Assembly (NCBI RefSeq): GCF_036507355.1
Contig: NZ_AP027877.1
Origin: Escherichia coli
GTDB taxonomy: Bacteria; Pseudomonadota; Gammaproteobacteria; Enterobacterales; Enterobacteriaceae
DNA length: 64,000 nucleotides
Direction: 5' to 3' (one strand)
Positions 3,001 through 9,000 of this stretch are shown in pieces. The number at the start of each line of letters is the position of its first letter. The stretch's first letter is position 1. Made by a program: the position numbers.

Positions 3001-6000
3001 TCTGTTCTACCGTTCCTCAAGAGATGGCTATGGTTTTGAGGAAGACTGGGCAGAAGTTTATACCTCGAAAAATCTTCCACCAGAAAGCTACCCAGTCGGT
3101 GCACCAATCCCGTGGCCATCAGATACCGTTCCGTCTGGTTATGCCCTGATGCAGGGGCAGACTTTTGACAAATCTGCTTACCCGAAACTTGCAGCCGCTT
3201 ATCCGTCAGGCGTGATCCCTGATATGCGTGGCTGGACGATTAAGGGCAAACCTGCCAGTGGTCGGGCCGTATTGTCTCAGGAACAGGACGGCATTAAATC
3301 GCACACCCACAGCGCCAGCGCATCCAGTACGGATTTGGGGACGAAAACCACATCGTCGTTTGATTACGGCACTAAATCCACGAATAACACCGGGGCGCAT
3401 ACCCATAGTGTTAGCGGTACGGCTGCTTCAGCCGGTGCACATACCCATTCGATAACATTTGTTTCAGGTGGCACCAAAGGTGCTCCGGGAAGTGGATCAC
3501 CTGATTATTCTAAATACAGTGTTAACACTTCTTCTGCAGGCGCTCATACGCACTCTGTATCGGGTACTGCTGCAAGCGCAGGTGCACACGCACATACTGT
3601 AGGTATTGGTGCTCATACGCACTCTGTTTCGATTGGCTCACATGGACACACCATCACCGTTAACGCTGCGGGTAACGCGGAAAACACCGTCAAAAACATC
3701 GCATTTAACTACATTGTGAGGCTTGCATAATGGCATTCAGAATGAGTGAACAACCACGGACCATAAAAATTTATAATCTGCTGGCCGGAACTAATGAATT
3801 TATTGGTGAAGGTGATGCATATATTCCGCCTCATACAGGTCTGCCAGCAAACAGTACCGATATTGCACCGCCAGATATTCCGGCAGGCTTCGTGGCTGTT
3901 TTCAACAGTGATGAGGCATCGTGGCATCTCGTTGAAGACCATCGGGGTAAAACGGTTTATGACGTAGCGTCAGGGGACGCGTTATTTATTTCTGAACTCG
4001 GTCCGTTACCGGAAAATGTTACCTGGTTATCGCCGGAAGGGGAGTTTCAGAAGTGGAACGGCACAGCCTGGGTGAAAGATGCAGAAGCAGAAAAACTGTT
4101 CCGGATCCGAGAGGCGGAAGAAACAAAAAACAGCCTGATGCAGGTAGCCAGTGAGCATATTGCGCCACTTCAGGATGCTGTGGATCTGGAAATCGCAACG
4201 GAGGAAGAAATCTCGTTGCTGGAAGCATGGAAAAAGTATCGGGTATTGCTGAACCGTGTTGATACGTCAACTGCACAGGATATTGAATGGCCAGCACTGC
4301 CGTAGGGTAAAACATATAAATTCTATAATTAGATGTATCTTTCCATTTACGGCAAGGAAGGGGGCTTGGAAGACGTAAAGCATCTCACACCGAGATTATT
4401 TTTTATATGTCAGGTGTCTGAAGTTTTGCTTTGGCTCTTAAAATGGTTTGCCGCGAGGTTTTGAATTCCCGGGCAATGGCACTTATACTTACACCTGACT
4501 TAATTCGTTCGAATACCGCCTGTTTCTGTTCTTCATTTAACACAGGTGGTCGACCAAAACGTTTCCCTGCGCCGCGGGCTCTTACTATCCCGGAATGAGT
4601 GCGTTCAAGTAAAAGGTCTCGTTCAAATTCAGCGACTGCTGAAATTACTTGCATCATCATTTTTCCTGTTGGACTGGTCAGGTCAATGCCCCCCAATGCT
4701 AAGCAATGCACTCTGATACCTGTTTCGGTCAGTTGTTCCACTGTTTTCCTGATATCCATTGCATTACAACCAAGGCGATCCAGTTTTGTCACAATCAATT
4801 GATCACCACATTTCAGGCGAGCAAGCAACCGGTTAAAACCAGGACGCTCACTGGTTGCTGCTGAGCCGCTAATGTGTTCTTCGATTATTTGCTGAGGTTT
4901 GATTTTAAAACCTGCACTTTCGATTTCCCGGCGTTGATTTTCGGTGGTCTGATCCAGCGTTGATATCCGACAGTAAGCAAAAATTCGAGACATAGTGAGA
5001 CTCTATACGAAATTGGTGTTCATATCATAATGCATCTCAGAAAATAATTATGATTATTTTTGTGCATATTTGTATGTACACGTTCGAAAATAAACGAATG
5101 CGTATGCAACCCCGTAATTTTGGTGAGACCCAAAATCGATTTTGTGAAAAATGGCTTTAACTCGGTTTGTTTTTCGAGTTCCGGGCGGACTCAAGGAAGA
5201 AGAATAGTGTTGCGTGTTATTTTAACCAGATTTCAAGTTGTTTGGTCGTGGAAAAGTGGAGCAAAATGTTGTTAAAGTGGAAAAATGATAAAAAAGTAAG
5301 TTTATTATATTACATTTTACCATTTAAATTTTGGTTGTCTTTAAGAACTGATATCGCTGTTTGTAATAATTCTTTGTTATCCAGCCATGATTTTTTCTTT
5401 ATGTTTCCTTCAATGTAATCAAGCAATGTTCTGGTATTGATAGGTCTTCCCTGTTTTGCTACTTCCACTACAGCATCCCCTAGGATAATTCTTACTTCAG
5501 GAAGCTGCGCAGGGAACCACTTTAGGGTGTCTTTTGATTTCATGAAGATATTCCTTAAAATATTATTGATTTTCATTGCGATATTGTATGTCTGATTCAG
5601 GATATGTTGACTTATACATCGGTTTTGTCTGGGTTATTGGATATGCCAATCCCTAATTTTATTAGGGCATGACTAAAAATGCTGAATATGATAAGGAGAG
5701 ATGTGATTATCAGTATGCTGTTCATATAGCCTCGAATTAGTAATGTGTTATATATGATATAGTTGACAATTTTTATCTTGGGTGTTCTTAAAGTTCGTAG
5801 ATAAACATTGTCGTTTCAGGTATACAGGAATGCTAACAGGTGGCAGCAAAAATCAGGCGGTTTATGGCGCAAGCTGAAGCGGCAACTGCAAACTATCTTA
5901 TGCAGAGACTCTACACGGATTGGGTTTAAAAGTATACATAGATAACAGTTTTTATCTGAAAAAGAAAAATATCAAGGTGATATAGCCTATATGCCTTTGA

Positions 6001-9000
6001 TGCGGAGGAATGAATGTGATGGGAGTGATGTATCTGAATAGTTGAAAAACCGCAGACACGCCTTATGCAAGAACGTGCTGCGGTTGGCTGGTAAATTTTT
6101 CGATAGTGTGAGTATTGAATGATTTCCAGCCGTTCTTGATTTTACGCATAAATCCATGAAAAAACTACTTATCTGTTGGGGAGTTTTTTTGGGGCATATA
6201 TGGGACAGAAATAGGCCCCAGATAGACACTGAGATCGAACTTAGGATGCTTTTTAAAAAATGCAACTATCTGAAAAAACCTAGAAAACGCCAAGGAAACC
6301 ACAGGATGGGAAAAAACACCTGTGAATTATGGATTTCCAGTTATATTCGCTCGGCGCAGCGTTAGTGTTTCATGAAATATTTTTTCCTGAATCATCAACG
6401 GCAATGGCGTTAATTTTGGCAATGGGAACCTACGGTGCAGGTTATGTGGCGCGTATTGTCGGAGCATTTATTTTCGGCAAAATGGGCGACAGAATAGGGC
6501 GTAAAAAAGTGCTCTTTATTACCATCACCATAATGGGGATCTGTACCACCTTAATTGGTGTGTTACCGACCTATGCACAGATTGGTGTTTTTGCACCCAT
6601 CTTGCTGGTGACGCTGCGTATTATTCAGGGATTGGGTGCAGGTGCGGAAATTTCCGGTGCCGGTACGATGCTGGCGGAATATGCGCCAAAAGGTAAGCGC
6701 GGAATTATCTCCTCATTTGTGGCTATGGGAACTAACTGCGGAACCTTAAGCGCAACGGCAATCTGGGCCTTTATGTTCTTCATTCTCAGTAAAGAGGAAC
6801 TGCTGGCGTGGGGATGGCGTATACCGTTCCTGGCGAGCGTTGTCGTGATGGTCTTTGCTATCTGGTTGCGTATGAATCTGAAAGAAAGCCCGGTCTTTGA
6901 GAAGGTTAACGATAGCAACCAACCGACAGCAAAACCTGCACCTGCTGGTAGCATGTTCCAGAGCAAATCCTTCTGGCTGGCAACAGGGCTGCGTTTTGGT
7001 CAGGCGGGTAACTCCGGTTTAATTCAGACTTTCCTTGCAGGCTATTTAGTACAGACGTTATTGTTTAACAAAGCAATTCCAACAGATGCATTGATGATTA
7101 GTTCGATTCTCGGCTTTATGACCATTCCGTTCCTTGGTTGGTTATCCGATAAAATTGGTCGCCGGATCCCGTATATTATTATGAATACCTCCGCGATTGT
7201 GCTGGCATGGCCAATGCTTTCTATCATCGTAGATAAAAGCTATGCCCCGAGCACCATTATGGTTGCACTGATTGTGATTCATAACTGTGCGGTGCTGGGA
7301 TTATTTGCTCTGGAAAACATTACCATGGCAGAAATGTTCGGCTGTAAAAACCGCTTTACCCGGATGGCTATTTCTAAAGAAATTGGTGGTCTTATCGCTT
7401 CCGGTTTTGGTCCTATCCTGGCGGGTATTTTCTGCACCATGACGGAATCCTGGTATCCGATCGCCATTATGATCATGGCATATTCAGTGATTGGTTTAAT
7501 CTCTGCGCTGAAAATGCCAGAAGTGAAAGACCGTGATTTAAGTGCGCTGGAAGACGCTGCGGAAGATCAACCGCGTGTTGTAAGAGCTGCGCAACCTTCC
7601 AGAAGTCTGTAAATCCTCAATCCCTTCTCTTACCGGAGAGGGGATTTTTTATTCATATAACAAAACATGTAGCTTGCCATATTTATATTTAAGGAATAGT
7701 TATGGGAAATAATTTGTTATCAGCAAAAGCGACGCTCCCTGTTTATGATCGTAATAACCTGGCCCCAAGAATTGTTCATTTAGGCTTTGGTGCATTTCAC
7801 CGTGCGCATCAGGGCGTGTATGCCGATATTCTTGCTACAGAACATTTCAGTGACTGGGGATATTATGAGGTCAACTTAATCGGCGGCGAACAGCAAATTG
7901 CCGATTTACAACAGCAAGATAATCTTTATACCGTTGCGGAAATGTCGGCCGATGCGTGGACGGCTCGCGTCGTTGGCGTCGTTAAAAAAGCCTTGCACGT
8001 ACAGATAGATGGCTTAGAAACCGTGTTGGCTGCGATGTGTGAACCGCAAATCGCGATTGTCTCTCTGACAATCACCGAAAAAGGGTATTTCCACTCTCCG
8101 GCGACCGGACAGTTAATGCTCGATCACCCGATGGTCGTTGCCGACGTGCAAAATCCCCACCAGCCGAAAACAGCAACAGGGGTGATTGTTGAGGCGCTGG
8201 CTCGCCGTAAAGCGGCAGGACTTCCCGCATTTACCGTCATGTCATGTGACAACATGCCAGAAAACGGTCATGTTATGCGTGACGTTGTCACTTCCTACGC
8301 GCAAGCCGTTGATGTAAAACTGGCACAATGGATCGAAGATAACGTGACTTTCCCATCAACAATGGTGGACCGTATTGTGCCCGCAGTGACAGAGGATACG
8401 CTGGCGAAAATCGAACAGCTTACCGGTGTGCGCGATCCTGCTGGCGTTGCCTGTGAACCTTTCCGCCAGTGGGTAATCGAAGATAACTTTGTTGCCGGAC
8501 GTCCGGAATGGGAAAAAGCGGGAGCAGAACTGGTTAGCGATGTACTGCCTTATGAAGAGATGAAGTTGCGCATGCTCAACGGCAGTCATTCATTCCTGGC
8601 GTATTTGGGCTATCTTGCCGGATATCAGCACATTAATGACTGTATGGAAGATGAACATTATCGTTATGCGGCGTATGGCTTGATGTTGCAGGAACAAGCG
8701 CCGACGCTGAAAGTGCAGGGCGTTGATTTGCAAGATTACGCTAACCGATTAATTGAACGCTATAGCAACCCGGCGTTACGTCATCGAACCTGGCAGATTG
8801 CGATGGATGGCAGCCAGAAATTGCCACAGCGGATGTTGGATTCTGTTCGCTGGCATCTGGCGCATGACAGCAAGTTCGATCTGCTGGCGCTGGGCGTCGC
8901 GGGTTGGATGCGTTATGTCGGTGGTGTTGATGAACAGGGAAATCCGATAGAAATCAGTGACCCACTGTTACCTGTTATTCAGAAGGCTGTACAACGTAGT

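Follow-up and report, generated by a model that had tools for sequence, protein, structure and literature searches.

Attachment junction of a Qin-type prophage within ydfJ of Escherichia coli

Introduction

In the textbook architecture of the attachment (att) sites of phage lambda, which served for comparison in this study, attR (P-O-B') combines a short core with a long AT-rich arm, short repeats are found on both arms and the integrase lies at the opposite junction. The described system closest to the one considered here is the Qin prophage of Escherichia coli K-12, one end of which splits the gene ydfJ (PMC6379469, Ramisetty & Sudhakari 2019). The Qin site is listed as ydfJ in strains K-12, B, W and Crooks (PMC3032704). 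In Shiga toxin-producing E. coli (STEC), ydfJ is a recurrent site for prophages that carry effector genes, and the att sequence of ydfJ prophages, as defined from excised attP, comprises 18-19 bp (PMC8112680, Nakamura et al. 2021). For the Rac prophage, too, the insertion point is the 5' end of a host gene (PMC6379469). Here we analyse 64,000 nucleotides of E. coli DNA (contig NZ_AP027877.1 of assembly GCF_036507355.1; referred to as the window), in which Qin-type prophage DNA is followed by a shortened ydfJ.

Position of the junction

Positions 6323-6337 of the window are almost certainly the tail-fibre-side attachment junction (attR, P-O-B' in lambda terms) of a defective Qin-type lambdoid prophage in ydfJ. 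Observed directly were the breakpoint, the repetition of the core, the displacement of the ydfJ 5' piece in relatives, the Qin identity of the left flank and the use of the same point by several prophage families. That a Qin end lies in ydfJ is already known (Ramisetty & Sudhakari 2019; Nakamura et al. 2021), and the junction is now refined to single-base resolution.

The position was obtained by alignment with the prophage-free strain ES5, in which rspA, rspB, ydfJ and ydfI are contiguous, with 57 nt between rspB and a ydfJ gene encoding 455 amino acids (aa). In the direct alignment, ES5 and the window are identical from ...TTATGGATTTCCAG rightwards and share nothing leftwards. Within ydfJ, homology with chromosomes that lack the prophage is lost at codons 26-31, and positions 5577-6322 are entirely prophage DNA. 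A preliminary description of this DNA had placed the boundary of a Qin prophage within 5577-6400, and the junction does fall there, at the far right end of that interval. The assignment to Qin likewise holds: window positions 1-2685 (99.6%) and 3539-7697 (98.7%) are collinear with K-12-type Qin, and the flank contains the Qin genes ydfO, ynfO, nohA, a tail-fibre remnant, tfaQ, pinQ, ydfK and ynfT. When window 5300-7700 was used as a megablast query against 5426 complete E. coli genomes, the full query was covered in 1986 of them, in which the Qin-type end is present. In other genomes the match began at window 6050, 6064 or 6190, and in many at 6323.

The transition from low-GC prophage DNA to core DNA of higher GC content, on which the preliminary description had relied, is real (0.359 in 4994-6322, 0.464 in the remaining part of ydfJ, designated ydfJ', and 0.488 in the rest of the window), but it is gradual and shows no step at the junction. 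Over its first 78 nt, ydfJ' still matches the phage arm in AT-richness (GC 0.372). Because the rise in GC is spread over 6000-6600, composition alone was rejected as a locator of the junction.

The att core and the fate of the ydfJ 5' end

A three-way alignment of the empty site (GCGCTTGAATTTATGGATTTCCAGTTAT), the int-side junction of K-12-type Qin (GCGCTTGAATTTATGGATTTCAAGAGTC) and the window junction (ACACCTGTGAATTATGGATTTCCAGTTAT) gave the following core.

6327-6337, no strand: exact att core TTATGGATTTC, 11 bp.
6323-6337: imperfect core TGAATT(T)ATGGATTTC, 15-16 bp with one indel, which reads TGAATT-ATGGATTTC in the window and TGAATTTATGGATTTC in the empty site.

The exact core is single-copy in the window. 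The K-12-type relative 3FA has a second copy of the core at the opposite prophage end, together with the 5' fragment of ydfJ; there, a pseudogene of a tyrosine recombinase (intQ) lies beside the int-side core and is followed by rspB. The 84 nt of ydfJ that are missing from the window, and the spacer upstream of them, are intact at this int-side junction beside the intQ pseudogene. Rather than being deleted, the ydfJ 5' end of K-12-type relatives has been moved away by one prophage length. The 84 nt, the peptide they encode and the rspB-ydfJ spacer were found nowhere in the 64-kb window, beyond which the int-side end of its own prophage lies. Of the two fates that the preliminary description had offered for the ydfJ 5' end, removal or displacement, the K-12-type relative shows displacement, and the source genome itself probably still has the 5' piece.

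The state of the site was surveyed in the same 5426 genomes with a 251-bp probe that spans it. The probe was uninterrupted, and the site hence empty, in 2009 genomes (~37%). In the remaining matching genomes the probe was split, its left piece ending at position 137-140 and its right piece beginning at 122; such overlapping ends are the signature of a duplicated core. Comparison with Qin-free E. coli, proposed in the preliminary description, brought out both an intact ydfJ and the short repeated core that it had anticipated.

At least four distinct lambdoid prophages occupy the identical point; they leave the same 1284-nt ydfJ' and have the att-proximal arm in common. Integration would have occurred by site-specific recombination, mediated by a tyrosine integrase, into a short core at ydfJ codons 26-31. 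The gene would thereby have been split such that its promoter-proximal part, comprising the rspB-ydfJ spacer and 28 codons, stayed by the integrase at the far prophage end, whereas codons 29-455 were left behind prophage DNA with in-frame stops just upstream. The intQ tyrosine-recombinase pseudogene and the lambda-like arm repeats point to this mechanism.

Comparison with related prophages

Gene order, the junction base for base and the 28-codon truncation are the same as in the split ydfJ pseudogene of K-12 Qin (PMC6379469). The two loci differ by ~1% sequence divergence, in the joint between terminase and tail-fibre genes and in an insertion sequence, IS1, that additionally interrupts ydfI in the window. 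At the terminase/tail-fibre joint, window 2686-3088 and 3418-3538 deviate from K-12 Qin, and therefore the head/tail deletion is not identical to that of K-12. The best-matching genomes, from enterotoxigenic E. coli of pigs, have about 2.2 kb more at this joint.

The PPydfJ prophages of STEC and enteropathogenic E. coli (PMC8112680) share the ydfJ point, an att-proximal arm of ~135 bp and the ydfJ' remnant with the window prophage. They are larger, carry type III effector genes (nleG-type DUF1076, nleC) and have a dinI-like gene beside the arm, where the window prophage has the pin-ydfK-ynfT module. Rac, integrated at ttcA, resembles the window prophage in tfa, pin, the cold-shock gene, ynaM/ynfT and the leader, which are 98.7% identical up to window 6087. 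However, it possesses another att arm and another target gene, and it changes the N-terminus of TtcA whereas Qin provides no substitute. With lambda attR, the junction shares the short core and the long AT-rich arm and, as seen in the K-12-type relative, the short repeats on both arms and the integrase gene at the opposite junction. This likeness is one of layout only, the arm-type sites being suggested here by repeats.

The ydfJ' remnant

6329-7612, + strand: ydfJ', the 3' 1284 nt of a gene for a transporter of the MHS family within the major facilitator superfamily (MFS), codons 29-455 plus stop (ES5 comparison and Pfam).
6323-6325, + strand: TGA stop, in frame with ydfJ and two codons ahead of ATG 6329.

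The open reading frame (ORF) 6329-7612 begins MDFQLYSLGAALVFHEIFFP and encodes 427 aa, which correspond to residues 29-455 of ES5 YdfJ, whose intact length is 455 aa. The start of the ORF is the internal Met29 codon, which is located within the att core. The encoded protein matches Pfam MFS_1 (1.8e-37) and Sugar_tr (5.8e-25). In five prophage-bearing genomes RefSeq annotates the same 1284 nt as a pseudogene, 'incomplete; missing N-terminus'.

Position 2 of the MFS_1 profile aligns to residue 21 of intact YdfJ, and therefore the loss comprises the cytoplasmic tail and roughly 8 residues at the start of the helix-1 region. The Pfam register was used for this estimate; a hydropathy window was uninformative, as helix 1 is too amphipathic for the threshold. 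The preliminary description was right in that the frame is truncated at the N-terminus, with residues 1-28 absent, but the tail and the start of helix 1 are lost rather than several helices. A complete N-terminus with the full first transmembrane helix, as in the 455-aa form, does not occur in ydfJ'. More in-frame stops lie farther upstream of the TGA at 6323-6325; together, these stops mean that the phage supplies no substitute N-terminus. The truncation also withstood a search of the window for an intact ydfJ start or N-terminus upstream, which found none, the frame being closed by stops. Insertion has probably abolished expression and function of ydfJ. A 69-aa ORF (6156-6365, + strand) that crosses the att core, linking the phage arm to ydfJ' in a different frame, is probably a chance chimera.

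Alternative interpretations

Several observations weigh against the assignment of 6323-6337 as an attachment junction that inactivates ydfJ. The exact core is short, at 11 bp, and the copy on the phage side lacks 1 nt relative to the empty site. The 11-bp core is compatible with the published att of 18-19 bp (PMC8112680) but is less precisely bounded, so that its boundaries are approximate. The int-side junction of the window prophage lies outside the window, and displacement instead of deletion was seen in relatives only. Moreover, all six of the prophage-bearing loci that were examined keep the 1284-nt frame of ydfJ' open, and differences among them are mostly synonymous (6-18 synonymous versus 0-3 non-synonymous codons per pair). 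If the 427-aa ORF were the complete native gene, the prophage boundary would lie farther left, near 5577. The ORF does have its own ATG, and ydfJ was long given as a 427-aa protein in the older annotation of K-12 (b1543). This interpretation is refuted by the ES5 alignment, the intact 455-aa YdfJ and the probe survey: in the 2009 genomes with an empty site 84 extra in-frame nt are contiguous with ydfJ' and rspB, 5577-6087 is 98.7% identical to the Rac end, and 6088-6326 is common only to other prophages at ydfJ. Its probability is practically nil. Hardly more credible is a truncation caused by a deletion or an IS-mediated rearrangement at the prophage edge in place of site-specific integration. 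The genome is rich in IS1, with three copies in the window, and the prophage is internally deleted; yet no IS end is found at the junction, thousands of genomes and four prophage families have one and the same breakpoint, and relatives have the core at either end and keep the 5' piece.

Of more weight, although unlikely, is the proposal that ydfJ' is alive, in that translation from Met29 still yields a 427-aa product with some remaining transport activity, its transcript arising by read-through or from a promoter in the prophage arm; the insertion would then have remodelled the gene and not killed it. The frame that stays open in six of six loci and the ratio of 12 synonymous to 1 non-synonymous difference between the window and the K-12 type would fit such a product, but the synonymous bias may be a legacy of the period that preceded each insertion. 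In one transporter table, K-12 ydfJ appears under TCDB 2.A.1.6.9 with K+ as its substrate, and ydfJ RNA is altered upon DicC induction. The ydfJ knockout of the Keio collection has an azithromycin-resistance phenotype, which could, however, be a polar effect on ydfI. Arguing against a living ydfJ' are the partial loss of helix 1, the lack of a Shine-Dalgarno-like sequence in the 15 nt preceding ATG 6329 and the lack of a promoter-like site on the + strand between 5600 and 6329; in the promoter scan the number of predicted sites equals the shuffled expectation. Somewhat more doubtful still is the specific version in which the clipped YdfJ is expressed under prophage or cold-shock-linked control with transport kept or altered, so that an occupied site would represent a rewired rspAB-ydfJI allele and not a simple knockout. 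A residual function of ydfJ' is improbable to a degree that spans these two proposals. The interpretation we favour remains site-specific integration into ydfJ with probable loss of its function.

Anatomy of the prophage right end

Between ydfK and ydfJ' lie about 750 bp without long ORFs. The prophage end is composed of the following elements.

3700-6087, no strand: module of tfa, pin, ydfK, ynfT and leader, sharing 98.7% identity with the K-12-type Rac prophage at its right end, where tfaR, pinR, a cold-shock gene and ynaM with its leader are the counterparts.
5310-5576, - strand: ydfK, prophage cold-shock protein gene (longest ORF 88 aa; the 77-aa form of RefSeq is 5310-5543).
5612-5725, - strand: ynfT, upstream of ydfK, encoding a 37-aa small protein of the YnaM/YnfT family (Pfam YnaM E = 6.5e-28; RefSeq annotation of homologous loci).
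6049-6083, - strand: GC-rich hairpin followed by UUUUUC on the - strand, terminator-like (-20.7 kcal/mol, z = -3.3).
6088-6326, no strand: attP-derived arm of the tail-fibre side (P arm in lambda terms), specific to ydfJ-integrating phages (end of Rac homology and four-prophage alignment).
6177-6207, + strand: three TGGGRNR motif repeats, TGGGGAG (6177-6183), TGGGGCA (6190-6196) and TGGGACA (6201-6207).

Beyond ynfT, a non-coding leader is contained within 5726-6322. The hairpin sits at a mosaic joint, since Rac homology stops at 6087 and homology to the ydfJ prophage of E6474 begins at 6050. No known RNA was found in 5726-6322; apart from a chance miRNA match, there was only a sub-threshold match to Rfam CssrB (Shigella sRNA B), which covers the 3' hairpin alone (25 bits versus a gathering score of 76). 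Elsewhere in the window, two Rfam matches exceed the gathering threshold: IS009 within tfaQ (4073-4271, 221 bits) and the Hfq-binding small RNA STnc560 (16446-16658, 277 bits).

A block at ~6191-6326 is conserved across the prophage ends of Qin, E6474, O157 FRIK2455 and 07_3722. The O157:H7 prophage carries DUF1076/NleG-type genes, and another of the aligned prophages carries nleC. The conserved block starts at the TGGGRNR repeats. The int-side arm of K-12-type Qin contains two tandem copies of TGGGGCA, 11 nt apart, 59 and 70 nt past the core end. By analogy with lambda, the TGGGRNR repeats are candidate arm-type integrase binding sites.

Neighbouring genes and IS1 insertions

To the right of ydfJ' follow ydfI, ydfZ, rspR (ydfH), ydfG and dcp, which is the layout of the right end of K-12 Qin according to the RefSeq annotation of matching loci. 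The gene adjoining ydfJ', ydfI, is interrupted.

9081-9848: IS1, 768 bp, in the 3' end of ydfI (mannitol-dehydrogenase family), with a 9-bp target duplication TAGCTTGTT at 9072-9080 and 9849-9857.

The insertion shortens the ydfI ORF to 466 aa, compared with 486 aa in K-12-type genomes, and as one contiguous piece it occurs in no complete E. coli RefSeq genome. A literature search for a link of ydfI to L-gulonate catabolism gave no match. Two more IS1 copies (47006-47773 and 50721-51488), in direct orientation and without target duplications that match, lie on either side of part of an autotransporter of the ECSE_1600 family (profile positions 376-856 of 1806). The fragment is located between lsrK and a fimbrial chaperone/usher pair, and the arrangement suggests IS1-mediated deletions. 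The IS1 load and the absence of the ydfI insertion from the complete RefSeq genomes hint at an IS-rich source strain outside that collection; that it might be Shigella-like is speculative.

Implications

For annotation, the 427-aa 'transporter' ORF is to be read as what remains of a gene truncated at its 5' end, and the adjoining 750 bp on the left as prophage and not host DNA. The long repeat formed by 3700-6087 and its counterpart in Rac could support recombination between prophages. Among the points at which lambdoid phages integrate in E. coli, ydfJ is one of the busiest: only 37% of the complete genomes have it empty and ~63% have it occupied. In pathogenic strains it hosts effector-carrying phages, as already published. 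In the genome studied here the rspAB-ydfJI cluster has been hit twice, by the prophage in ydfJ and by IS1 in ydfI. As the gap between rspB and ydfJ measures only 57 nt in prophage-free strains, the prophage insertion probably uncouples ydfJ-ydfI from the rspAB promoter.

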